From Thermoproteota archaeon (lineage in GTDB: Archaea > Thermoproteota > Methanomethylicia > Methanomethylicales > Methanomethylicaceae), in assembly GCA_030055575.1 (NCBI GenBank), contig JASFYL010000003.1, forward strand, positions 1 through 52,057: a stretch of 52,057 nucleotides of DNA, given 5' to 3'. Below the pieces are notes generated by a model, which was not told the DNA's origin, ran no database searches, and saw nothing but the letters and a program-made list of their open reading frames with translations. The stretch's first letter is position 1; each line of letters begins with the position of its first letter. Shown here piece after piece: positions 3,322 through 49,681 of the stretch. A program made the position numbers and the translations under genes.

Positions 3322-3759
3322 TCAGATATCCATCAAATTGAGGGCCGTGGTTTCGTCGTATTTTCTGCGTATGTTCTGCCTAAATGCCCGCAAGTGTGCT
3401 TCTCCCGCAAAAACGAGCGACCCCTCTGCCAGGTGACCGCCGAAGCACCTGCCATCCTTGTCTGCGAGGACCACATGGCAGTGGACGACCGTCTCACCGT
3501 CTTTTGATGCGATATTTCCGATCCCTGAGGCAATTTCTAGGGGCGTATCAAAAGTGTTTTTCCAGTACCTTTTCTCATCCTGCAGATAGTAGTACAAGGT
3601 TGCTTTCTTCAGTGCGCCTATAACTGTGAATACTCCAGCTCCGATCCTCAGCCCCTCCGCGGCATCCCTGATCGAGACCAGCAGGTCGGAATCGTGAGGG
3701 ATCTTGATAAAATATTCCCCAGCAAAATCCACTTCTCTTATCCCCAAATCACTCACCAA
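3322..3759 (-). CDS. PPC/DUF296 domain protein
   Basis: IGAL..., LEIASGIGNI, VHCHVVLAD, FGGHL and VFAGE motifs. Confidence 0.9.
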   Translation of the reverse strand: MVSDLGIREVDFAGEYFIKIPHDSDLLVSIRDAAEGLRIGAGVFTVIGALKKATLYYYLQDEKRYWKNTFDTPLEIASGIGNIASKDGETVVHCHVVLADKDGRCFGGHLAEGSLVFAGEAHLRAFRQNIRRKYDETTALNLMDI

Positions 3760-3810
3760 AATAATTATCTTTTTGGGCGCAAAAATGGTTTTACCCGTCT
3801 GGTGTGGCGC

Positions 3811-7579: not shown

Positions 7580-8767
7580 ATGGCTGAAAATATTAGCTTG
7601 AAGGAAGACAGCACTTACCTGCTAATGCAGATAAAGAAGCTTGAGCAGAGAGCACAAGAGTTGGAAGCTGAGAAGAGGGACTGGATCTTCGAAAGGGAGA
7701 GGCTCCAGAGGGAGATCCAGTTGCTCAGGTCTGAGATAGAGAAGATCACCGTTCCGCCATATATTGAGGGATATGTCACTGACATTCTCCCTGACGGTCG
7801 CGCGGTGGTCAAGAGTTCAACTGGACCGTCATTAGTCGTTAACGTAATGAGGACCGTCGATGCCTCCCAACTTGTGCCTGGCAAGAGAGTGTCGCTTAGT
7901 CAGAGGAACTTTGCGATTATAGAGGTCTTACCGGACAACCTCGATACTTATGTACAGGTCATGGAGGTAGTCGAGTCCCCAAAAGTCTGTTATGAAGAGA
8001 TCGGAGGGCTAGACGAGCAGATACGGGAGCTCAGGGAGCTCGTCGAGCTGCCGCTTATCAACCCGAGGATCTTCGAAAAGATCGGCATAGATCCGCCAAA
8101 GGGGGTCCTCCTTTATGGACCGCCGGGATGCGGGAAGACTCTCATGGCGAAAGCGGTGGCAAATGAAACGAAGGCTAGGTTCATAAAAGTGGTGGCATCG
8201 GAGCTCGTCCAGAAGTACATAGGCGAAGGTGCTAGGATGGTCCGAGAGCTCTTCCAGATGGCAAGGGCAAAGTCCCCTAGCATAGTCTTTATCGACGAAA
8301 TAGACGCAATAGGTAGTCGAAGAGGGGACATAAACATCAGCGGGGAGAGGGAGGTCCAGAGAACCCTCCTCCAGTTGCTCAGCGAACTGGATGGATTCAG
8401 TGCAAGGGGGGACGTAAGGATCATCGGGGCAACCAACAGGATAGACTTGCTCGACCCTGCGCTGCTGCGCCCAGGCAGGTTTGACAGGATTCTGGAAATA
8501 CCGCCTCCCGATGTCAATGGCAGGGAAGCCATCTTCAGGATCCACCTCTCGAAGATGAACATCTCCGATGATGTGAGTGTAAAGCGCCTCGCCTCACTAA
8601 CAGACGGGGCTACCGGTGCCTCAATAAAAGCAGTGTGCACCGAAGCGGGGCTTTTTGCAATCAGGGAAGGCAGGGATCAGGTCGCGCTTGAAGACTTCAT
8701 TAGGGCGATCGGCAAGGTCCTGAGGAAGGAGGGAGTAAAGAGTGCCCCGAGCGGGACCTACATTTGA
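7580..8767 (+). CDS. pan: Proteasome-activating nucleotidase
   Basis: Coiled coil and OB domain, GVLLYGPPGCGKT, SELVQKYIGEG, IDEID, ATNRIDLLDPALLRPGRFDR, C-terminal HbYX motif (TYI). Confidence 0.97.
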   Translation: MAENISLKEDSTYLLMQIKKLEQRAQELEAEKRDWIFERERLQREIQLLRSEIEKITVPPYIEGYVTDILPDGRAVVKSSTGPSLVVNVMRTVDASQLVPGKRVSLSQRNFAIIEVLPDNLDTYVQVMEVVESPKVCYEEIGGLDEQIRELRELVELPLINPRIFEKIGIDPPKGVLLYGPPGCGKTLMAKAVANETKARFIKVVASELVQKYIGEGARMVRELFQMARAKSPSIVFIDEIDAIGSRRGDINISGEREVQRTLLQLLSELDGFSARGDVRIIGATNRIDLLDPALLRPGRFDRILEIPPPDVNGREAIFRIHLSKMNISDDVSVKRLASLTDGATGASIKAVCTEAGLFAIREGRDQVALEDFIRAIGKVLRKEGVKSAPSGTYI

Positions 8768-9242
8768 GACCCCCACTTCAGAAGAGCTGAGGAGGCTTAG
8801 GGGGGTAGCGGATTATCAGTTCGGGAGGGGTGCTGGTGACGCACTCTTCCCCGATGGGATTCAGGTGATCAGGTCTAAGAAGACCGGCAAGATCAAGGGC
8901 ATTCTCGTCAGGGGTGAACTCATCGCAACACTCAAGCCCTCTGACGGATACCTGGCTTTGAGCATAGCGGGGGGAAAGGCGCTAATGGAGGCACTTCCTC
9001 CGCCGAAAAGCAGGGTGGTGGCGATGGACGAGGTATCTGATTTTATCAAGGAGGGCAGGAACCTGTTCGCTAAGCATGTGGTAAGCGCAGACCCAAACAT
9101 CAGACCCGGGGATGAGGTGGTTATAACGAATTCCAACGGTACGCTGTTGGCCGTGGGAAGGGCTGTGCTCAATGCGAGAGAGATGAAGTATTTTAAGACA
9201 GGACTTGCAGTAAATGTTAGAAGAGGAAACGGCTCCGAGTGA
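8742..9242 (+). CDS. PUA-domain protein (pre-PUA+PUA, like the C-terminus of archaeosine TGT)
   Basis: ADYQFGRGAG, SKKTGKIK, GRNLFAKHV, IRPGDEV, LAVGRA. Confidence 0.88.
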   Translation: MPRAGPTFETPTSEELRRLRGVADYQFGRGAGDALFPDGIQVIRSKKTGKIKGILVRGELIATLKPSDGYLALSIAGGKALMEALPPPKSRVVAMDEVSDFIKEGRNLFAKHVVSADPNIRPGDEVVITNSNGTLLAVGRAVLNAREMKYFKTGLAVNVRRGNGSE

Positions 9243-9598
9243 TTGAAATGAAGAAGATGAGTCAACGGGAAATGAAGCGGATTATGCAAAAGATGGGCAT
9301 GGGGCTCGAGGAGCTGCAAGGTGTTCTGAAGGTGACTATCCATTTCCGGGACAGGAGGCTGGTGATTCCAGACCCGCAAGTTACGCAGATGAAGGTCAGC
9401 GGTCAGACCATCTATCAGGTGGTAGGGGAAGCATTCGAAGAGAAGGAGAAGACAGAAACCAAAATCGAAATCTCTGAAGAAGATGCCCAACTGGTCTCCG
9501 CCCAGACCGGGGCTACAATCGAGCAGGCAAAGAAGGCCCTGGAGGCGTCGAATGGGGACCTAGCGCAGGCCATAATGCTGCTGACCTCTAAAGCATGA
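9239..9598 (+). CDS. nac: Nascent polypeptide-associated complex protein
   Basis: MKRIMQKMGM, P.V..M...GQTIYQVVG, and the UBA-like EEDAQLVSAQTG...NGDLAQAIM. Confidence 0.95.
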   Translation: MIEMKKMSQREMKRIMQKMGMGLEELQGVLKVTIHFRDRRLVIPDPQVTQMKVSGQTIYQVVGEAFEEKEKTETKIEISEEDAQLVSAQTGATIEQAKKALEASNGDLAQAIMLLTSKA

Positions 9599-11837
9599 AG
9601 CGCTGCATTGTGGTTGCGAACTCCCTCTCTTGGTTGCTCCATTTTCTTGATGGCTTGTATCTGCCATAGACGCGCGTGTATTTCACAAGTCGGTCCCCAG
9701 AGCAGGGACATCTGGGGCATTTCTCATTGAGTCCGGCCGACACCTCTCCGCAACCCCAACAATAGGTGTAGTCTTTCGTGAAGCTGAAGAGTCCTATGTT
9801 CGCTGTCTCAAAGATCCGCCGCGCCTGGTTGCAGATGATCTCCGGGGTAGGGGATGGCTCATCTAGGCGGATATTGAAGAAATGGCCCCCCACCATCATG
9901 CTCTGGAATTGCTCCTCAACTTGGAGCCTCTTCTTCAGAGGGATGGGTCTGGTGAGCGGCAGAACCGAATGCTCAGTGTAGGGCGCAATAACCTTTGCAT
10001 TCGCGAGACCGCTTGATATGTCCAGGCTGGTCAGCCGGTGAGCCGCGGGCTCGAAGGTTACGTATGAAGGCATGAGTCGGAGCTGCGGCATCTCTTTCGA
10101 ATATTCCAACATGCTTTCCACAATCTTCTTCGAAATATTGAGTGGGAGCGGATCGTCCAAAATGTCAAGACCAGTGTGGAATTGAACTGCCTCAGGGAGC
10201 CCCACAAAACTGATCACTCCCGCCGAGTCATCAACCCGATAATACGGCGATCCCGATACCTCTTCCTGGAATAACGGGAGGAGCCTGTCTTTCATGCGAT
10301 CTCGGATGACTTGTCGCTTTATCGTCAAAGCCTCCTTCGATATCTCCATCAGCTCTCTTAGGCGCTCCAGTAGCAAGTCGTCGTTCCCTTTGGCGGCATA
10401 GGCTATTCTGGGTAGGTTGATCGTTATATTTTCCAAAACTCCAGTTCTCAAGGTTCCAAGCTCGCTGCCCTTCCATGCCGAATCCAGCCTTGACAGACTA
10501 GCGTTGTATGCCACATTCTCTGTCTGCCAAGAGAGATCTTGGTTAACGAAATAGGGCGTACCCCACTTCCCAGCCATCTCACAGGCCTTTTCTAGGCAAC
10601 TGCACCCTTCTTCTGCCACGAGTGTTTTCTTTCTGATTTTAAGGAAGATGGCAGGGTTCATAAAGGGTTTTCCAGATCCGTCTTTTGAACCCATGACCTC
10701 CAGCAGGAGGCGGGCTATGCGGAGGGACTCGTCGTGGAAATCTCCGTACTTCAGCCCTTCAGTATCGCCGACCGGGGCATCCGAAAGAAAAGCGGGCATG
10801 TCGGTCTCCAATTGAACCGCCACAGGAACTGAGCAACCTGCAATCGTGTTCAATAAGTAAACAAAGTCCCTCAAAGCACCCTTAACTTCGTCGTCGCTCA
10901 TGCCAGAAGAATATGGAGCCAAGAATATGTTGAAGAAAGGGAGAGCTTGGGAGTTCGACACCAGTTCGGTGGAGACTTTTACGAGGTTGAGAATAGCATA
11001 CAACGCCCCCTTTAGGGTTTTGGGGGCATGATGAGACGGAGCGATCGAGCCGTTCGGATCTGCGGCAAGCTTTCCGGAGAGCACAGGACGGAGGTCGTGT
11101 TGCACATCTGCTGGCCTGAGGATCCAATAATTTGCATTGTTCAAGTGAATCGCGCCGCTAAGGTGCGCGTCGGCTATGGTCCTGGGCAGTACCTTAAGCA
11201 GAAGGTACTCCTCGTAAACTGAGTCTCCTGCCAGAGAATGCACCTCTGCCGGAGAGTAGTACCCCACGTATGATGCGTTTTGTATTGTAGAGGTAACATC
11301 GTAGACAGGCTGTCCAAGTCGCGTAAGTGAGTGCCTATATTCCTCAAGCCCCTTCTCCAAGAGGATGGCATTCACGAACTCACGGATTAGGGCCGCGGTC
11401 AGGTATTTGACCTGTACCTTTCTAAGTCGCTCTTCTGCTTCCTTGGATATCGACTCTGCCAGTTTTCTGGGCACATTCGCCTCGCGAATTAATGCCTGAA
11501 CTATCTTCTTCCTGTCGAAAGGCTCTATTGTGAGGCTCGAGGTCCTGACCTGCATCTCCCCTTTTTTTCTTCTGATAGCATCTTCCACACCATAAATGAA
11601 GCTGGCTACATCTTGGCCCAGGAGGGTAAGGTAATACTTTCCTGTGGCTTCATCTGAGGCGATGAGTTCCGAGTCGATCAAGGTCCTGAGGTGGTAACCA
11701 AACTTGCCCGCATCGCTCTTTGGAGCCATATTCAGCCGTTCCATGATCTCAGTGAATGAAAGCGACCCTCCCATACTCAACATCTTCAGGATTTCAGCCC
11801 TGATCTCGTTTGAGAGAGCGGAGAGTATGGACTCCAT
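9588..11837 (-). CDS. ArsR-like wHTH + ATP-cone + class III ribonucleotide reductase (NrdD)-like protein, apparently lacking the catalytic Cys residues
   Basis: HTH (IRAEILKML...SFTEIM...GKFGYHLRTL), ATP-cone (VRTSS...EPFDRKKI...LIREFVNAIL), NrdD motifs (DAHLSGAIHL, FNIFLAPY, LRTG...TINLPRIAY, ISFVGLPE, GGH, CxxC-x11-CxxC, TRVYG). Likely start ATG 11837. Confidence 0.88.
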   Translation of the reverse strand: MESILSALSNEIRAEILKMLSMGGSLSFTEIMERLNMAPKSDAGKFGYHLRTLIDSELIASDEATGKYYLTLLGQDVASFIYGVEDAIRRKKGEMQVRTSSLTIEPFDRKKIVQALIREANVPRKLAESISKEAEERLRKVQVKYLTAALIREFVNAILLEKGLEEYRHSLTRLGQPVYDVTSTIQNASYVGYYSPAEVHSLAGDSVYEEYLLLKVLPRTIADAHLSGAIHLNNANYWILRPADVQHDLRPVLSGKLAADPNGSIAPSHHAPKTLKGALYAILNLVKVSTELVSNSQALPFFNIFLAPYSSGMSDDEVKGALRDFVYLLNTIAGCSVPVAVQLETDMPAFLSDAPVGDTEGLKYGDFHDESLRIARLLLEVMGSKDGSGKPFMNPAIFLKIRKKTLVAEEGCSCLEKACEMAGKWGTPYFVNQDLSWQTENVAYNASLSRLDSAWKGSELGTLRTGVLENITINLPRIAYAAKGNDDLLLERLRELMEISKEALTIKRQVIRDRMKDRLLPLFQEEVSGSPYYRVDDSAGVISFVGLPEAVQFHTGLDILDDPLPLNISKKIVESMLEYSKEMPQLRLMPSYVTFEPAAHRLTSLDISSGLANAKVIAPYTEHSVLPLTRPIPLKKRLQVEEQFQSMMVGGHFFNIRLDEPSPTPEIICNQARRIFETANIGLFSFTKDYTYCWGCGEVSAGLNEKCPRCPCSGDRLVKYTRVYGRYKPSRKWSNQEREFATTMQRFML

Positions 11838-11867
11838 CAATCTCTCGGACGACAAAACTCCGCACCA

Positions 11868-11899
11868 ATGTAAAAGAAGGTTAGCATGTAAAAAAAGGT
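11868..11899. promoter_or_regulatory. Tandem 14-bp direct repeat upstream of the HTH-NrdD-like gene
   Basis: ATGTAAAAGAAGGT (11868-11881) and ATGTAAAAAAAGGT (11886-11899): 13/14 identical, 18-bp period. Confidence 0.5.
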
Positions 11900-11911
11900 G
11901 TAGGTGTGCCA

Positions 11912-12304
11912 CTATAGTCTTGGTCGGAATTTTATCGCGTATTCGATAATTCCGGAGTCCCCGTCCTCCATGACCTTTCGTAAGACTGCTTCGACAGGGA
12001 TCCCCGCTTTTACCTCTTCGGGTTCTATGTCCGTGATCTGCGACATGATGGTTGTCCCGTCCTCCAGTTTCACGAGACCGATAATATACGGCGAAGCCTT
12101 CTCGAACCATTTTGGGGGGTTCCTAACAATGGTGTAGGTAACGAGTGTCCCAGTCTCGGGGAGCCTGTATGCCTCAAACTCTACCGAGCCGCACTTAGCG
12201 CATCTACATCGTGGAGGGTAAACCACCGCGCCGCAGTCCTTGCACTTTGCAGCCTCCAGTCGAGACCTTCTGGGTATCTCTCTCCAATACCTGGGAACAG
12301 ACAT
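11912..12304 (-). CDS. DUF35 zinc-ribbon/OB-fold protein (thiolase/HMGS scaffold)
   Basis: CKDCGAVVYPPRCRCAKCGS plus OB fold (PYIIGLVKLEDG); directly follows the thiolase. Confidence 0.93.
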   Translation of the reverse strand: MSVPRYWREIPRRSRLEAAKCKDCGAVVYPPRCRCAKCGSVEFEAYRLPETGTLVTYTIVRNPPKWFEKASPYIIGLVKLEDGTTIMSQITDIEPEEVKAGIPVEAVLRKVMEDGDSGIIEYAIKFRPRL

Positions 12305-12306
12305 GC

Positions 12307-13461
12307 TTATCCTCTCCTGAGTATGCTCACGAATGCACAGGACCCCGACCCACCGATATTCTGGGCAAGACCCACTGTTGCATCTGGGACCTGCATTCTG
12401 CCTGCCCTTCCAGTCAACTGTAAGAATATTTCAGCTATCTGATATGCGCCTGTTGCCCCTACAGGATGTCCCCTCGACTTCAACCCTCCGCTTGGATTAA
12501 TGGCGACCAGACCTCCCGGTTCAAACGCACCGTTCTCCATCATCTTGTGGAACTTCCCCCGCTCGCAGAATCCGAGATCCTCTAGGGAGATCGCACCGGT
12601 AATTGTGAATGTGTCATGGATCTCCGCGACATCTATGTCGGACGGAGTGACCCTTGCCATGCGGTATGCGCGGTCCGCTGCCACGACAGTCGACCTAAAC
12701 GTCAAAAGGTCATCCCTCGAGGCGATGTTGATTGTATCGCTCGCCCCTGCGACCCCCGCCACCTCTACGTAAGCATCAGAATATCTCTTCGCATCCTCGA
12801 GAGGGCAGAGTACGACGGCAGCGGCGCCGTCCCCGACCGGCGCGCAGTCGAAGAGCGTGATTGGGTCGGAGATCATGTCAGAGTTCAAGACGGTCTCCCG
12901 CTTAATCTCGAAAGGCAACTGGGCGAATGGGTTCTTTGACCCGTTCCTGTGCATCATTACCGAGAGGTCGGCGAAAGCCTCTCTTGGTACACCATAGAAT
13001 CCCATGTAGTGGCGCATTATGAGGGCGTTTAAAGAGACGAAGCTCGCGCCATAAAACAGTTCGTACTCAGCATCAGCAGCTTTTCCAAGCGAGAAGGTCG
13101 TGTTCCCCCCCACTCCGTCTGTGAGCTTTTCTACACCGCCAGTCAAAACGACATCATAAATTCCAGATGCAACTGCGGTATAGGCAGCCAAGAAGGCCGC
13201 CCCTCCAGACCCGCATGCAGCCTCCACTCGGTAGGCTGTTGTGGGGTTCATTCCCAAGTAATCCGCTAGAAGCGATCCTATGTTGTTCTGATCGGAAAGG
13301 TCAGAAGCACACATATTTCCCACTATCAGCGCGTCTACCTTGGGCGCGCCACAGCCGCTTAGCGCCGCAGTCCCAGCCTCTCCAAACAGCTCTTTTAGCG
13401 ACCTTCTCCAGTGTTTGTCGACTTTTGTCATTCCTGCACCTACAATAGCTACTTTACGCAT
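12307..13461 (-). CDS. Acetoacetyl-CoA thiolase (archaeal type)
   Basis: VEAACGSGG, GGVEK, DGAAAVVL, AEIHDTF, NPSGGLKSRGHPVGATG, NIGG. Confidence 0.95.
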   Translation of the reverse strand: MRKVAIVGAGMTKVDKHWRRSLKELFGEAGTAALSGCGAPKVDALIVGNMCASDLSDQNNIGSLLADYLGMNPTTAYRVEAACGSGGAAFLAAYTAVASGIYDVVLTGGVEKLTDGVGGNTTFSLGKAADAEYELFYGASFVSLNALIMRHYMGFYGVPREAFADLSVMMHRNGSKNPFAQLPFEIKRETVLNSDMISDPITLFDCAPVGDGAAAVVLCPLEDAKRYSDAYVEVAGVAGASDTINIASRDDLLTFRSTVVAADRAYRMARVTPSDIDVAEIHDTFTITGAISLEDLGFCERGKFHKMMENGAFEPGGLVAINPSGGLKSRGHPVGATGAYQIAEIFLQLTGRAGRMQVPDATVGLAQNIGGSGSCAFVSILRRG

Positions 13462-13472
13462 GGATGAACCCC

Positions 13473-14537
13473 CTAAAGGACGATCTTTCTTCGCATCTTT
13501 GCGTAGATGGAATATTCCAAGTTCTTCTTTCGGCGAATATAATCAGACACTTTCGGCGCCTTGTTTCGTCTAGAAGTTATCCCATCTCCCACGATTAGGC
13601 TGAAAGCGTCGCTTCCAGCCCCTGACCCGAAGCTCGCAAGAAAGATGCGATCGCCAGGCTTTGCGATGTCTAAAACTGCAGAAAGTCCAGTTACCGATGA
13701 CCCGGCGTAGAGGTTCCCTATGCACGGGACCAAGAAACCGGCCTCGATCTGCTCTCTTTTAAATCCCAACAGCTTTGCTGCCCTTATCGGGAACTTTCCA
13801 TTTGGCTGGTGGAAAACCGCGAACGAAAAGTCTTCGGGTTTCAAAGATAGCTCCTCCATCAATAGTTTCCCGGCGCTGATCACGTGTTGGAAGTAGGCTG
13901 GCTCCCCCGTAAAGGCCTCTGCGTGGGACGGATAGTCTTTCTTCGGTCTTCTCCAGAAGTCTGGAGTGTCAGTCACATAGGATACTGAAGCCTCGAACTT
14001 GGCTACGGGCTCTGTGTCTTTGTCCCCCCTACCCAAGATGATCGCGGTGCCACCACATCCGGCAGAGAACTCCAGCGCATCAGCCGGCGCGCCCTGCGCA
14101 GTGTCGGCTCCGATCGCCATCCCGTAGTCGATCATGCCCGACCCGACCAGCCCTATGCAGCACTGAATGGCTTCTGTACCCGCCTTACACGCGAATTCAA
14201 GGTCAGCTGCCAGCAACCGAGGGGTTGCGCCGAGCGCTTCGGCTACGATCGTGCCAGTGGGCTTCACTGCGTACGGCTTTGACTCTGATCCCACAAATAT
14301 CGCGCCCAAATTGCTTGGCGCTACGCCGGCACGCTTGATGGCATTCTTGGCTGCCTCGACAGCAATGGTTGCCACATCCTCGTCCTGACCTGCGACCGCC
14401 TTTTCGTCTATTAGCAAGTCCTCTCTGAAATGCTTGGCAGACTTACCCCAGACCTTCGCGATCTCTTCAGCAGAGACCCGATATCTTGGGATGTAAGACC
14501 CCCAACCCGAAATAACTACATCTATAATCGGGCGCAT
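13473..14537 (-). CDS. mvaS: Hydroxymethylglutaryl-CoA synthase (archaeal)
   Basis: [55 protein letters not shown]. Confidence 0.95.
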
Positions 14538-14630
14538 TGGCTCACCACGTTCACAGTTTAAGACACACTTAACGAGGCAATATATTAGGACTACGTTTTT
14601 TGACTTATTTTATAATCGACTTTTGACGAA

Positions 14631-15335
14631 TCAACCACGTAGCGCATGTAATGACTTGACGAGTTCTTCGACAGTTTCCTTTTTTGATAGCACCATAGGG
14701 ATATTTTCAGCCTTTGCGAGCTCCACTGCAATTCTGTCCAGCCGCGTAACCCCGTGAAGGATGATCGCTGCAGGCTTCAGAGGCGTAACTCTCACCGCAA
14801 CCATTGGAGACCTCCCTGTGCTTGTCTTTGTGAAAATCAAAGCCCTTTCAGCAGTAGATCCCATAAGCTGGTAGAAGTCTGCGCCTGACATTGAGAGTAT
14901 CGCCCTTATGCTGTCGACCACAGTATATCCGAGTATCTTTTTATCCGAACAAGATGTGCATGTAAGGAACTCACCGTCTACCGCTTGAGAAACCTCGGAG
15001 AGAGAGAACGGAGAGGGGAACTCATACAGGTCGATTATAGCGTCTGAAGTCGTGCGCATGATGGAAGAAAACTGCCTTATCACCCTCCCCCCATGGAGGC
15101 TATCGATCGCTACAAGACCGACGACAAATTTCTTTATGAAGAGCGCGCCTGGCGACCTTCTTCTTCCGCCTTCATAATCGCTGATAACAGAGGGGGAGAT
15201 CCCCATCTTTTCGGAAATTTCTAGCTGTGTGATCCCAAAGATCTCCCTCCACCTACGCATGATCTCGCCAGGTTCGTTTGACAGAATGATCTCTCCGATT
15301 ATGCGTTTCATAAGGAGCTCCTTTGCTGCCTCCAA
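14631..15335 (-). CDS. XRE-family HTH transcriptional regulator with DRTGG-like C-terminal domain
   Basis: GEIILSNEPGEIMRRWREIFGITQ...SPSVISDYEGGRRRSPG; YQLMGSTAERALIFT...GRSPMVA. Confidence 0.88.
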   Translation of the reverse strand: MEAAKELLMKRIIGEIILSNEPGEIMRRWREIFGITQLEISEKMGISPSVISDYEGGRRRSPGALFIKKFVVGLVAIDSLHGGRVIRQFSSIMRTTSDAIIDLYEFPSPFSLSEVSQAVDGEFLTCTSCSDKKILGYTVVDSIRAILSMSGADFYQLMGSTAERALIFTKTSTGRSPMVAVRVTPLKPAAIILHGVTRLDRIAVELAKAENIPMVLSKKETVEELVKSLHALRG

Positions 15336-15426
15336 TCAGTACACCGCCGAAGCATTGTCTCTAGTAGTGAAAATCAATTTCTATAAAAAAGTATAAAGAG
15401 CTGCCTTTTTTCTTTATTCTCTCTAA

Positions 15427-15504
15427 GGGGCTGTAGGCTAGCTTGGTCTAGACTGTCAGGCTCGGGCCCTGGTGACCCCGGTTCAAATCCGGGCAGCCCC
15501 ACCA
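15427..15504 (+). tRNA. tRNA-Pro(CGG)
   Basis: GGGGCTG/CAGCCCC acceptor, TCAGG-CTCGGGC-CCTGG anticodon arm, GGTTCAAATCC, encoded CCA. Confidence 0.95.
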
Positions 15505-15922
15505 GCCTCTGGGCTTAAGGATCGCCTAGACAAGTAGCAATAGGCAGCAAAAGCCGTTACGATGCAGCACAGTTCTCCGGGAAAATCCAGTTGTGGAGAA
15601 ATAGTCAAAGGTCATGCACGCCCATTGATCAGCTTGAACTGAATTCCTCGAACCCTGATCTTGAGAGAATATGCGTGATGGGAAATGTTTGAAAAGTGCG
15701 AGCAGAGCAATCTTTGGAAAATATGAGAAGTGCAAATATGGCTATAAGCCTGACGGAAAAGAACAGTTGGGCTAATGTTAACAGAAGAGAATGCATTGGC
15801 TTGAGATCGAAAGGCATAAGCTTAAAGCAAACATAATTCAAATTCACAATGCTTCAAAACCACACAAAATGCAGTGACCAAAATATTTTACTGCTACATT
15901 AAACTAAATTTATATAAACATT

Positions 15923-15950
15923 TTTTCTTATAAAAAGAATTATGTTATAT
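15923..15950. other. Possible dif-like Xer recombination site (11-6-11)
   Basis: TTTTCTTATAA-AAAGAA-TTATGTTATAT. The right arm matches E. coli dif XerD arm TTATGTTAAAT at 10/11; the AT-rich context weakens the call. Confidence 0.3.
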
Positions 15951-16335
15951 AAAATTTTATAGAATAAAACAAAAATAATTCGATATGATTGTGTAGACTG
16001 AAAACATAGACATGTGCCATCTTTCCACCACCATGGTTTGCACAACACCAGTCTAGCGGCTTAACAAATGCGCCTAAGTGGTATGGGCTCTGAAGAGGAG
16101 AAATTAAAGCCGTAAAAGAAAGGAGCAATATTATAAACATATTACGTCCCAACTTGGCAATCTCATATGATTTGGTCAAAATGCTCTAGCTCACGTCGTT
16201 AATCCGCCGTGCTATTCTGTCCGTCTGGACGGCTCCATCTGTTTTGAAACAAAAATCACTCTATTTTAACAAAATTTAATATATTTACAACCCATCAATA
16301 CAAATAATAAACTAGTTATTACAAAAATTATAAAA

Positions 16336-17148
16336 TTATAGTGGTTTGCCGCACTTAGGGCAGAACTTCGAGCCTGGCTCTATCGAAGCGCCGCAACTGC
16401 TGCAGAAATTGACAGTTTGCTGAGATGTAACCGAAGGTGGGGGCGGAGGGGGAGGTGGCGGGTATGTCGACTGCGAGGTTCCAGGCGCAACGGCAGATCT
16501 CCTCCCTTCAGTGTAGACCAAAGCAGCCGACCTGAAGATGAAGACGCTTACCGCTGGTGAGATTATAATCGAGAGCAGCCACCCGATTATCGGTATAAGC
16601 CCGATAAGCCCTACGATGAAAACGATTACGAGCAAGGCTATGACCCATAAGATGTACGCCCCCCACCCCACGCTCCGGATAATGTCGAAGATCTCACCAA
16701 ATGCAAATGCCTTCCCAAAGTCTTTCTGTTTGATCATATTGATGACAGCCATGTAGAAGACTATGCTCAGAAGGAAGGCTAGAACCACGCCTGCAATCAA
16801 TGCAACGATAGCGAAACCTCCAAGGATAACCCCCGGGGTAGGACCCACTAGAGGTATCGAGGAAATAGCGAAGAGTGATGGGCCCAGCAGAAGGAGTGGC
16901 ACGATCATGTAGATTATCCCTGCGATCAATACCTTGAGACCCTCAATAAAGAGGGAGGAATAACCGCTCAGTGGAGGAGGCGCGTTATTCTCTGGAGTTT
17001 CACTCGCTACCCTTGCCGCATAACCGACCACAATAAAGTTCACAATAGGGATTATGCTGAATATCACCAGCAGCAAAAGTCGCCCCAGATCACTGAATAA
17101 TTTTTGCGCATACTCAAATGAGTCGCTTAAGTTTTTTCCTAGATCCAT
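16336..17148 (-). CDS. DUF4013 membrane protein with poly-Pro linker and C-terminal double zinc ribbon
   Basis: IPIVNFIVVGY, FIEGLK, AFAFGEI, P9 run, FCSSCG...FCPKCG; GAGGAG SD before ATG 17148. Confidence 0.88.
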   Translation of the reverse strand: MDLGKNLSDSFEYAQKLFSDLGRLLLLVIFSIIPIVNFIVVGYAARVASETPENNAPPPLSGYSSLFIEGLKVLIAGIIYMIVPLLLLGPSLFAISSIPLVGPTPGVILGGFAIVALIAGVVLAFLLSIVFYMAVINMIKQKDFGKAFAFGEIFDIIRSVGWGAYILWVIALLVIVFIVGLIGLIPIIGWLLSIIISPAVSVFIFRSAALVYTEGRRSAVAPGTSQSTYPPPPPPPPPSVTSQQTVNFCSSCGASIEPGSKFCPKCGKPL

Positions 17149-17216
17149 GTTAAACTCCTCATTAAACATCAAAACATATGTTATATATAACCCTATCAAC
17201 AAAAGCAGTCAAAAAA

Positions 17217-18608
17217 TTACAGTAAGGATTCCTTTTTCAGAATCCCCCTGCCTGCGATGATGCCGTTGGCTGCCGCGCCTACAATTCCCCTCGAGAGTCC
17301 GACCCCGTCTCCAGCCACAAAGAGGTTTTCGACATTCGTCTCGAGGTCTTTGTTCACCTGGAATTTGTTTGCGGAGAATTTTATCTCTGGTGCATAGAGG
17401 AGAGTCGATGAGCTCGCCACACCGGGAATGATCTCATCGAGCTTTTCCAGACCTTCGATGATGTCTGAGACGATCCTGTGAGGCATAGCCATCGCTATGT
17501 CCCCAGGCGTGGCCGAGAGCAGCGTCGGCTTAATTTGGCTGTGGGAGATCCTCGTCCAAGTCGACCTCCTACCCATGCGCAGGTCGCCCAACCTCTGGAT
17601 GAGCGGCTCCCCGCCCCCTAGTATCGTCGCTTGCTGGACGACCGAGCGCCCGTAGGCGGTGGTGTCCTCCACCGGCTCCGTCAGGACCACCCTCACCAGG
17701 AATGCAAAATTGCTGTTTTCGGAGGTCGTCTCTGTCATCGAGTGTCCATTTACACCCACAAACCCGTCGTAAACCTCCTTCACAACATACCCCTGGTGAT
17801 TCACGCAGAAGGTCCTCACGAAGTCGTCGTATGTGTCGGTGTAGATGTGGAACTTCGGATCTCGGTTTACCTGAATGATTGGCTCCATAACGAATGCCGG
17901 CACCTCAACCCTTACGCCGATGTCGATCGGCTCGTGCTTTGCCGGAATCGAGAGCCGTTTGGCGATCTCAGCAGCCCAGTTTGCACCCACCCTGCCCGGC
18001 GCCAAGAGGATGTATTTTGCGGTCTTTTCGGAACCGTCTTCGAGGATAACCCTGCCTAGCTTTACATCATTGACGCGGGTCCCCAACTGAAATTTTACGC
18101 CTTTTCTCTCAAGGTCAGACTTGAAGTTGTTAATCACCTTTGGTGCGCCGTCGCTCCCCATATGCCTTTGGGTGATGGGGAGAAACTTTATCCCTACGGA
18201 TGCAGCCCTCCGTTGCAGATTCACGGCCTCATCTACGTCGCCACTATAGACTTTTTTCGGGGCGCCATATTTGACGAAGATCGAGTCCACATAGTTGACC
18301 AGATCCCATGCTTCTTTCTCGCTGCTCGTAAACTCGCCGAGGTCGCCACCTATGTCTGGCCTGAGGTTCAAGAGACCGCTCGAAAGGGTGCCTGCGCCGC
18401 CGACCCCGCTCATTATGCTGCAGACACGGCACTTGGTACAACTCTTATAATTCTGGACCGGGCACTTCCTCTTGTCCACGTCGTATCCCTGATCTATGAC
18501 GAGGACGGAAAGCTTCCCCTGTGCCTTTTCAGCAATCTCGTAAGCCGCAAACATACCTGCCGGACCCGCACCGACGATGATCACATCGTAATCCAAAGAC
18601 GACACCAC
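17217..18608 (-). CDS. Uncharacterised FAD-dependent dehydrogenase with N-terminal Cys cluster
   Basis: IVGAGPAG Rossmann motif, C-x6-CxxCxxC, GVGGAGTLS, VRTFC, LYAPEIKF, LFVAGDGVG. Confidence 0.9.
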   Translation of the reverse strand: MVSSLDYDVIIVGAGPAGMFAAYEIAEKAQGKLSVLVIDQGYDVDKRKCPVQNYKSCTKCRVCSIMSGVGGAGTLSSGLLNLRPDIGGDLGEFTSSEKEAWDLVNYVDSIFVKYGAPKKVYSGDVDEAVNLQRRAASVGIKFLPITQRHMGSDGAPKVINNFKSDLERKGVKFQLGTRVNDVKLGRVILEDGSEKTAKYILLAPGRVGANWAAEIAKRLSIPAKHEPIDIGVRVEVPAFVMEPIIQVNRDPKFHIYTDTYDDFVRTFCVNHQGYVVKEVYDGFVGVNGHSMTETTSENSNFAFLVRVVLTEPVEDTTAYGRSVVQQATILGGGEPLIQRLGDLRMGRRSTWTRISHSQIKPTLLSATPGDIAMAMPHRIVSDIIEGLEKLDEIIPGVASSSTLLYAPEIKFSANKFQVNKDLETNVENLFVAGDGVGLSRGIVGAAANGIIAGRGILKKESLL

Positions 18609-49380: not shown

Positions 49381-49681
49381 GGCGTGTTGGTCATAACCCA
49401 CCTTCTGTTTTAGGCGGCATTCGACTATGCAGGCTACCCGGGCCTCGTGTGGACCTCACAGGCCTCTATTTGCCCTTGCTCCCCGCGGATTGGCCGTTTC
49501 AACGTAACCGCCGGCATACTCAACGGCTTGATTGTAACCGCATCACTGACACCCGCCGGCGGGCGTGCCGTTTCTGATCCAAGAGCAGGGGTCTCCCCCT
49601 ATGCCTCGCGGCATCGCGGTTCCACATGGAGGGTGGAGTTTCCTCAGACCTTGCGGTCCGTGAGCCGCCCACCAACTCGCC
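49381..49681 (-). ncRNA. rnpB: RNase P RNA
   Basis: P4 halves GAGGAAACTCCACCC and AACAGAAGGTGGGTTAT; P1 GGCGAGTTGGT/ACCAACACGCC; TGAAACGG and GAGCAAG conserved regions; ~301 nt. Confidence 0.95.

Follow-up and report, generated by a model that had tools for sequence, protein, structure and literature searches.

Can a class III ribonucleotide reductase (RNR) that has lost its catalytic residues and carries a putative DNA-binding domain at its N-terminus still be of use to the cell, and for what? The question is raised by a gene on the minus strand of contig JASFYL010000003.1 from a Thermoproteota archaeon of the Methanomethylicaceae (GCA_030055575.1), of which positions 1–52,057, a stretch of 52,057 nucleotides, were analyzed and are referred to as the window. 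Control of RNR sets the pools of deoxyribonucleoside triphosphates (dNTPs) and hence replication fidelity. Bacteria use NrdR, an RNR-specific repressor of about 150 aa consisting of a zinc ribbon and an ATP-cone, and to our knowledge no NrdR counterpart has been found in most archaea. The product of the gene in question, termed here the dead-NrdD gene after the class III catalytic subunit NrdD, is with near certainty a pseudoenzyme. Its winged helix-turn-helix (wHTH) and ATP-cone on a dead RNR scaffold, widespread and strongly selected, represent a concrete and testable candidate for the NrdR role in archaea, with methanogenic Methanomethylicia among the carriers besides Bathyarchaeia, Nitrososphaerales and Asgard archaea. 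If this role is true, an entire radical enzyme would have been reused as a transcription factor, which would be unusual.

The fusion of wHTH, ATP-cone and NrdD that the sequence-only reading of the window had claimed for the 749-aa open reading frame (ORF) at 9588–11837 is borne out by the uninterrupted frame and by Pfam domains. At residues 4–81, the N-terminus matches the models DUF7347 (38.5 bits, cut-off 27.6) and HTH_5 (22.2 bits, cut-off 22), and a weak match to the archaeal ArsR-like structure 1y0u is found. The NRDD model covers residues 193–736 at about 243 bits, compared to 482 bits for the canonical paralogue of the same genome, and the NCBIfam equivalog model for NrdD, TIGR02487, yields 229 bits, under its cut-off of 326, so that the protein does not qualify as an equivalog. 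In line with homology to class III RNR (PF13597, with T4, T. maritima, P. copri and S. thermophilus as structural representatives), an AlphaFold model based on 87 relatives (mean predicted local distance difference test score, pLDDT, of 88.8) retrieves NrdD in all of the top 36 Foldseek matches against the PDB, at TM (template modeling) scores of about 0.6–0.75. Shared with NrdD are the barrel fold, the N-terminal ATP-cone, the Cys4 zinc ribbon, the Asn of the NLPR motif and a C-terminal loop whose radical position holds a Gly, though not the Tyr that comes next in enzymes. Unlike NrdD, however, the window protein bears an extra wHTH, has no cognate activase and is degenerate at the sites of catalysis.

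For mapping these sites, solved NrdD structures were matched with the family profile (profile-to-PDB alignment), and the secondary structure of the AlphaFold model was taken into account. All motifs previously quoted for the protein (RPADVQHDL, AYNASLSRL, CWGC...CPRC, RVYGRY, TFEP and PYTEH) were found in their places, and the central claim, loss of both catalytic cysteines, holds. The reductive "bottom" Cys on strand betaA (T4 Cys79, T. maritima Cys125 and its P. copri equivalent), conserved in 92.6% of class III sequences according to the extensive RNR phylogeny by Burnim et al., is replaced by Asp244 within RPADVQHDL, where the canonical paralogue reads RPFCQDHDL. In the finger loop, Ser449 aligns to T4 Cys290 of the MGCR motif and likewise to MGCR of S. 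thermophilus, whereas in a MAFFT alignment that includes 112 canonical archaeal NrdDs the double Cys falls on Ala446/Ser447 instead. The alignments thus differ by two or three residues, but the hairpin 440–455 is free of Cys either way, in contrast to the finger loop CFQCCAYSF of the paralogue, and the finger-loop cysteine that the sequence-only reading had named as grounds for giving up its claim is not there. In the model, strands 442–444 and 450–452 flank the tip NASLS (445–449), and Arg450, directly following Ser449, is invariant in the family. The reservation that cysteines further upstream (GCSC...AC) might serve can be dropped, as Cys412, Cys414 and Cys420 reside inside a helix (409–424) and are not conserved.

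Degeneracy extends beyond the motifs listed earlier, among which TFEP replaces PAES, PYTEH replaces YYSNG of the canonical paralogue, and RVYGRY (RITGYY in the paralogue) has Arg in place of the Tyr conserved after the radical Gly in enzymes. Overlooked were the HLNN sequence replacing the triphosphate-binding (H/Y)xHD, deletion of the NxN flap (ENANxQ) in the window protein and in at least 108 of 118 family members, and a deleted or degenerate loop 2 with loss of R268, G270, Q271 and F274. The functions of the triphosphate motif, the flap, loop 2 and the Tyr after the radical Gly have been described (PMC4493059, PMC11226230). Likewise, H213, K216, Q222, R268 and Q271, located in helix alphaA and loop 2 and conserved in canonical enzymes as part of the dimer/specificity interface, are all lost, while the NLPR Asn is kept. 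As both the substrate site and the communication path via loop 2 are degenerate, the ATP-cone is by all appearances the only clearly preserved nucleotide site, and the barrel would not be a (d)NTP-sensing element.

Features of the dead-NrdD locus and other elements of the window; residue ranges refer to the window protein.
Feature	Position	Strand	Basis or remark
Whole wHTH–ATP-cone–dead-NrdD gene	9588–11855	minus	ORF, conserved TTG and Shine-Dalgarno sequence, gene call P0002
Alternative start codon TTG	11853–11855	minus	18 nt upstream of the ATG
Start codon ATG of the 749-aa ORF	11835–11837	minus	
Stop codon	9588–9590	minus	
wHTH (ArsR-like, Pfam DUF7347/HTH_5), residues 1–92	11562–11837	minus	Pfam, invariant columns, ratio of non-synonymous to synonymous substitution rates (dN/dS)
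ATP-cone, residues 95–172	11322–11555	minus	Pfam PF03477 match at residues 95–167, 34.1 bits versus cut-off 25.8
NrdD-type 10-stranded alpha/beta barrel without catalytic residues, residues 193–690	9768–11261	minus	Pfam, NCBIfam, AlphaFold, Foldseek
HLNN in place of (H/Y)xHD, residues 231–234	11136–11147	minus	alignment
RPADVQHDL	11091–11117	minus	
Asp244 codon at bottom Cys position	11106–11108	minus	alignments
Finger-loop hairpin tip AYNASLSRL	10485–10511	minus	profile alignment, model hairpin
Ser449 codon	10491–10493	minus	profile alignment
Cys4 zinc ribbon CWGC...CPRC (Cys693, Cys696, Cys707, Cys710)	9708–9761	minus	invariant in 87-sequence alignment
Gly725 codon at glycyl-radical position, in RVYGRY	9663–9665	minus	equivalent to Gly621 of T. 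maritima and Gly711 of P. copri
Promoter region of dead-NrdD gene	11856–11899	minus	TATA-like boxes and GGTG Shine-Dalgarno sequence
First TATA-like box ACCTTTTTTTACAT	11886–11899	minus	conserved in same genus, 30 nt upstream of TTG
Second 14-bp box copy ACCTTCTTTTACAT	11868–11881	minus	window-specific; unrelated sequence there in same-genus relatives
Conserved gene block	8742–18608		neighborhood survey
Archaeal RNase P RNA gene	49382–49680	minus	Rfam RF00373, 220 bits

More than 100 full-length proteins at 39–73% identity show the same three-domain architecture in Methanomethylicia, Bathyarchaeia and several Asgard lineages, and the overall range of the family also includes Nitrososphaerales and Aigarchaeota. 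When 118 members were aligned with the 112 canonical archaeal NrdDs, all of the latter possessed the bottom Cys, both finger-loop Cys, the radical Gly and the Glu of PAES. Among family members, by contrast, the bottom Cys is found in none, both finger-loop Cys in at most one in that alignment (with a Cys of GCR two residues on in about 28), the Gly in 69 (Ala in 37) and the Glu in 52; only the NLPR Asn is present throughout both groups (112/112 and 118/118). The finger position varies between S, C, T, E, H, L, V and A and the Gly position between G, A, S, N and T, and finger-loop Cys and Gly are both retained in just 3 of 120 tabulated members. A GCR motif left over in Bathyarchaeia members hints at an ancestor with the single-Cys (MGCR) type of finger loop. 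From the 173 columns conserved to at least 97% in canonical enzymes, 50 survive in the family, very unevenly distributed: 13 of 18 canonical-invariant positions are kept in the ATP-cone plus linker, the other five changes being conservative, versus 37 of 155 in the core. Moreover, the classical E-x-F-D-R-x-K-I signature is present in the family ATP-cone but only in part in the canonical archaeal cone, where some of it was lost. In the predicted recognition helix (...DAGKFGYHL...) Gly44, Phe46, Tyr48 and His49 are invariant across the family, as are the H-L-x-x-L signature and, in the barrel interior, Asn432, Arg450, Asn474 (corresponding to T4 Asn311) and Tyr620. Catalytic loss is thus a property of the family and not an accident of one gene.

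The phylogeny that the sequence-only reading had proposed as a check places the family and the 112 canonical NrdDs in reciprocally monophyletic groups (support 1.0), separated by an internal branch of about 1.2 substitutions per site. Side by side with this, the first 190 residues (wHTH plus ATP-cone) were searched against 1.84 billion representative proteins (E ≤ 1e-10), resulting in 429 clusters, including 114 new clusters at 50% identity of at least 520 aa. Zinc ribbon and C-terminal tail are kept in 31 of these 114, another 32 stop 7–21 residues past the zinc ribbon, leaving little or no space for a Gly loop, and 46 are devoid of zinc ribbon and Gly domain altogether. About two thirds of the distant clusters have accordingly lost either the glycyl-radical loop or the C-terminal domain as a whole. 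Members of the truncated clusters looked up are encoded on contigs of 45–540 kb, several with identical length, and stem from sources including Aigarchaeota (Ca. Terraquivivens) and Lokiarchaeota; a Nitrososphaerales cluster (697 aa) has the zinc ribbon but no loop. From this pattern, the N-terminal module appears to be what evolution keeps, the radical domain being expendable.

Source records name family members "anaerobic RNR", as in the case of the Nitrososphaerales cluster, or "HTH domain-containing protein", and many of the records examined carry the label "anaerobic ribonucleoside-triphosphate reductase". Such mislabeling inflates the inferred number of class III RNRs and the capacity for anaerobic dNTP synthesis in metagenome-based reconstructions, aerobic lineages included. 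A literature search on HTH-NrdD fusions, DUF7347, winged helices combined with an ATP-cone and RNR pseudoenzymes did not turn up a description of the family, a large and unnamed archaeal group that is most likely undescribed and is labeled as the enzyme in databases.

Loss of catalytic residues might simply mean that the gene is a pseudogene undergoing decay or an artefact of annotation, for which one could also cite its non-synonymous rate, which amounts to about 3.3 times the rate in the canonical paralogue. Among five Methanosuratincola genomes, however, dN/dS of the dead-NrdD gene is 0.044–0.061, compared to 0.024–0.043 for canonical NrdD, and the gene is clearly functional and under purifying selection. 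The two properties that define a pseudoenzyme, lost catalytic residues and purifying selection, are thus both found. Within the gene, constraint is tightest in the ATP-cone (0.006–0.014) and the wHTH (0.008–0.041), followed by the barrel (0.055–0.076) and the C-terminal domain (0.05–0.10), whereas the cone of canonical NrdD shows values of 0.06–0.085. In addition, full-length orthologues in several phyla as well as conserved synteny, promoter and start codon are at odds with decay, which had already been doubted in view of the uninterrupted frame; the probability of a pseudogene or artefact is negligible, and this reading was rejected. As a separate observation from same-genus comparisons (L041–L044 against L034–L039), dS of the dead-NrdD gene (0.7–1.3) amounts to about 1.4- to 3-fold the dS of canonical nrdD (0.28–0.75) when identical genome pairs are considered, hinting at codon-usage constraint or recombination at nrdD.

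Could the protein still be an enzyme with altered chemistry, catalyzing some other reaction, radical or not, on a substrate resembling a nucleotide, or acting as a reductase by means of other residues? The strong purifying selection on the barrel and its four invariant interior residues would be in line with this, as would Gly725, which is kept in the clade of the window protein, and T. maritima NrdD demonstrates that finger-loop geometry may mislead (PMC4493059). Nevertheless, this is considered very unlikely, since the would-be catalytic positions vary freely among members, triphosphate motif, flap and loop 2 are lost, no dedicated activase exists, and the distant clusters so often dispense with the Gly loop or radical domain while always keeping wHTH and ATP-cone.

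If the protein does not reduce nucleotides, its hosts should do so by other means. In the window's own genome, a canonical nrdD (723 aa) with adjoining nrdG, encoding the radical S-adenosylmethionine activase, is located on contig C57, in accordance with the suggestion to look for a second copy. This nrdG is the only clear one in the genome; none was found on the window's contig, confirming the statement that none is nearby, and a PF02867 RNR was not found in this genome. Within the class Methanomethylicia, where canonical and family proteins separate by bimodal scores (431–508 versus 139–287 bits), the dead-NrdD gene is present in 30 of 41 genomes. Canonical NrdD co-occurs in 29 of these, and the 30th (G038) has a PF02867 RNR. 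All 11 complete or large genomes tested possess canonical NrdD and/or a class II-type RNR, and the concern that the family protein might be the only RNR of a complete genome can be dismissed; one of them, G047, combines the dead-NrdD gene with a class II-type RNR (PF02867) and has no canonical NrdD. Canonical nrdD of several relatives, including G003, G027, G030 and G044, is split by inteins (ORFs encoding 1100–1220 aa, Pfam intein/LAGLIDADG); in family members, no intein domain or intein-sized ORF turned up, although no search was aimed at inteins.

Regular coexistence with canonical NrdD invites the alternative, also raised by the sequence-only reading, of a non-catalytic partner that modulates true NrdD or NrdG and whose wHTH makes protein contacts instead of binding DNA. 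Preservation of the NrdD fold and zinc ribbon, retention and constraint of the Gly loop in the window protein's clade, and adjacency to canonical nrdD at 24 loci (see below) would suit such a subunit. On the other hand, the family is present where canonical NrdD is not (G047 and G038, with a PF02867 RNR only, and aerobic Nitrososphaerales), the residues of the dimer/specificity interface are lost, and a recognition helix that is invariant across phyla is what would be expected of a DNA reader. A partner role is therefore disfavored and, in our judgment, distinctly unlikely.

The search for NrdR itself gave no match above cut-off in the 41 related genomes, while controls matched in nine bacteria, and TIGR00244 (NrdR) is also absent from the NCBIfam matches of the window protein. 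Eight of the genomes contain small stand-alone ORFs (about 90–105 aa) with weak similarity to the NrdR model in its ATP-cone part (20–28 bits, below cut-off).

Gene neighborhoods were surveyed at 88 loci. A conserved block reads in the order HTH_3 protein, 3-hydroxy-3-methylglutaryl-CoA (HMG-CoA) synthase, thiolase, DUF35 protein, dead NrdD, optionally an NrdH-like glutaredoxin (grx) and canonical nrdD, then pyrB, pyrI, NAC and PUA, with lineages retaining differing parts. Canonical nrdD follows 250–740 bp downstream on the same strand at 24 of the 88 loci, in 18 of them with the glutaredoxin gene in between, and at two loci (L121 and L140) a class II-type RNR is found downstream instead. This gene order would fit a tandem duplication of nrdD followed by vertical inheritance, whereas the two class II cases speak for a functional connection with RNR that goes beyond common ancestry. 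In the window and at loci L003–L011 and L061–L140, which span Thermoproteota to Asgard, the block also includes a flavin adenine dinucleotide-dependent reductase ahead of the HTH_3 protein. Its HTH_3 protein (about 235 aa) is uncharacterized and syntenic and is itself a candidate regulator.

The same survey bears on the possibility that the protein is a DNA-binding regulator of another regulon, either pyrimidine synthesis (pyrBI) or the flanking mevalonate/lipid genes. Indeed, pyrB lies within 5 kb at 29 of the 88 loci and pyrI at 26, the genes for HMG-CoA synthase, thiolase and DUF35 protein are directly upstream on the same strand at 24, including the window and Loki, Freya, Jord and Atabey Asgard genomes, and HMG-CoA reductase is upstream at two. 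In the window, the nearest same-strand neighbors are the mevalonate genes, 74 bp upstream, and the dead-NrdD gene is convergent with NAC/PUA. However, pyrB is convergent with the dead-NrdD gene, precluding a common promoter, the whole block resembles an ancient inherited gene order and not an operon, and the class II RNR adjacency would be left unexplained. Furthermore, the ATP-cone is otherwise known only in RNRs and NrdR (PMC9110341, PMC12176259). Control of another regulon is hence regarded as unlikely, albeit less so than the enzyme and partner alternatives.

Weighing these findings, the protein is reasonably likely to be an ATP/dATP-sensing, DNA-binding transcription factor and a functional analogue of bacterial NrdR, because constraint is highest in wHTH and ATP-cone, none of the 41 related genomes has NrdR and the gene adjoins RNR genes of two classes in other lineages. 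Nucleotide binding, DNA binding, target genes and the sign of regulation are at this stage predictions from sequence, with RNR or dNTP-supply genes as best guess for the targets. From the sequence-only reading, which had seen a dead scaffold reused as a DNA-binding (d)NTP sensor and counterpart of NrdR, the dead but selected scaffold stands firmly, the barrel as (d)NTP sensor does not, and the sensor and regulator part is kept as the proposal made here. Like NrdR, the protein would pair a DNA-binding domain (predicted here) with an ATP-cone and play a regulatory role, in organisms without NrdR, and its gene adjoins or heads RNR genes in many lineages, as nrdR does in some bacteria. In contrast to NrdR, with which it is homologous only in the ATP-cone, it has a wHTH and not a Zn ribbon as putative DNA-binding domain and an attached dead barrel of 550 aa. 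The N-terminal 90 residues match models of ArsR/SmtB-type wHTH regulators (HTH_5/HTH_20) and DUF7347, but unlike in the former the wHTH is fused to ATP-cone and RNR barrel, a metal-sensing site is not evident, and the sensor is presumably the ATP-cone.

Mechanistically, a duplicated class III catalytic subunit would have lost nucleotide reduction, and its NrdD barrel and zinc ribbon would have been kept as a structural, probably dimeric, scaffold. Binding of ATP or dATP to the ATP-cone might then shift cone and wHTH relative to the barrel or change the oligomeric state, and either change could switch DNA binding on or off, coupling transcription of the target genes, most likely those of ribonucleotide reductase or dNTP supply, to the (d)ATP pool. 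A more far-reaching scenario appears plausible but is held tentatively and with considerable reserve: a class III RNR might have been turned wholesale into a transcription factor before the Thermoproteota/Asgard split and inherited vertically within the gene block, as a master regulator of archaeal dNTP supply reading the ATP/dATP ratio via the cone and acting on RNR promoters of whichever class the host possesses, with the barrel serving only as a dimerization and signaling scaffold and the radical domain trimmed in many lineages.

Several findings weigh against the proposed NrdR-like role. In its own genome, the gene does not adjoin any RNR gene but comes after the operon of HMG-CoA synthase, thiolase and DUF35 protein, and the adjacency to canonical nrdD in Bathyarchaeia could be a leftover of the tandem duplication. 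The ATP-cone has Thr-Ser where most cones carry the phosphate-binding Lys-Arg pair; the Arg of this pair is also missing from the parental archaeal NrdD cone. As the barrel is strongly constrained (dN/dS about 0.06) and shows the invariant interior residues mentioned above, it may bind some further ligand. Finally, no motif common to the gene's own promoter and RNR promoters was found beyond T/A runs, and the conserved nrdD promoter blocks, each unique in its genome, are not assignable to the dead-NrdD protein.

Concerning these promoters, canonical nrdD of Methanomethylicaceae is preceded by a 43-bp block of the structure TATCWATTTTTTTAAAT-N5-CACTCWAAAAAA-N2-TTWTAAA, which has been kept across about nine genera while the flanks diverged and which, according to nhmmer, is unique in the window's own genome (C57:36797-36839; locus L001, about 3720–3800, minus strand). 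A similarly built element, TATACAGAATTTTATAC-N6-CACTAAAAAATTAAATA, occurs once per genome in the grx-nrdD promoters of Bathyarchaeia, and the family's own promoter in Bathyarchaeia keeps the exact 15-mer TAATTTTTTAAACTA. Exact matches to the latter were found upstream of the dead-NrdD gene and at one second site in a single genome (G050), and the 17-mer TATACAGAATTTTATAC matches exactly only upstream of grx-nrdD; other near-matches of both are about as frequent as those of a reversed-pattern control. All of these elements are good candidates for specific regulation with the regulator unassigned, although much of each resembles generic T-run TATA boxes; 8-mers of this T-run/TATA-like type are the commonest promoter words in the window's own genome. 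For want of a common core, the idea of one motif serving both the gene's own promoter and that of nrdD was rejected. An NrdR-box-like tandem repeat was not found, and the tandem 14-bp repeat of the window was discarded as an operator, its first copy being at the expected TATA site and its second being genome-specific.

Co-loss of the dead-NrdD gene and the nrdD block was also considered and rejected as a test, the apparent absences of the gene in four metagenome-assembled genomes (MAGs; G003, G013, G021 and G017), in which the nrdD block seemed to be retained, being due to an unassembled region: these also lack the adjoining essential DUF35 gene, and hence the dead-NrdD gene was not lost there. 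A true loss is found in one family (f6), in which the grx-nrdD promoter differs, but this lineage is too distant to be decisive. The chromosomal region around the dead-NrdD and DUF35 genes seems to be repeatedly missed in assembly or binning of MAGs.

Regarding the bounds of the gene, the uninterrupted frame is as previously described, whereas the start codon probably is not the ATG at 11837. Translation from the alternative TTG yields a product starting with MSSERLMES, and as this codon and the preceding GGTG Shine-Dalgarno sequence are kept in 16 relatives, which have a Leu codon at the position of the ATG, the true product is probably the 755-aa protein, in agreement with the length of the database gene call. 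At the far end of the window, the archaeal RNase P RNA gene lies within the last 4 kb, a region of low GC content (0.38–0.40) and poor in ORFs.

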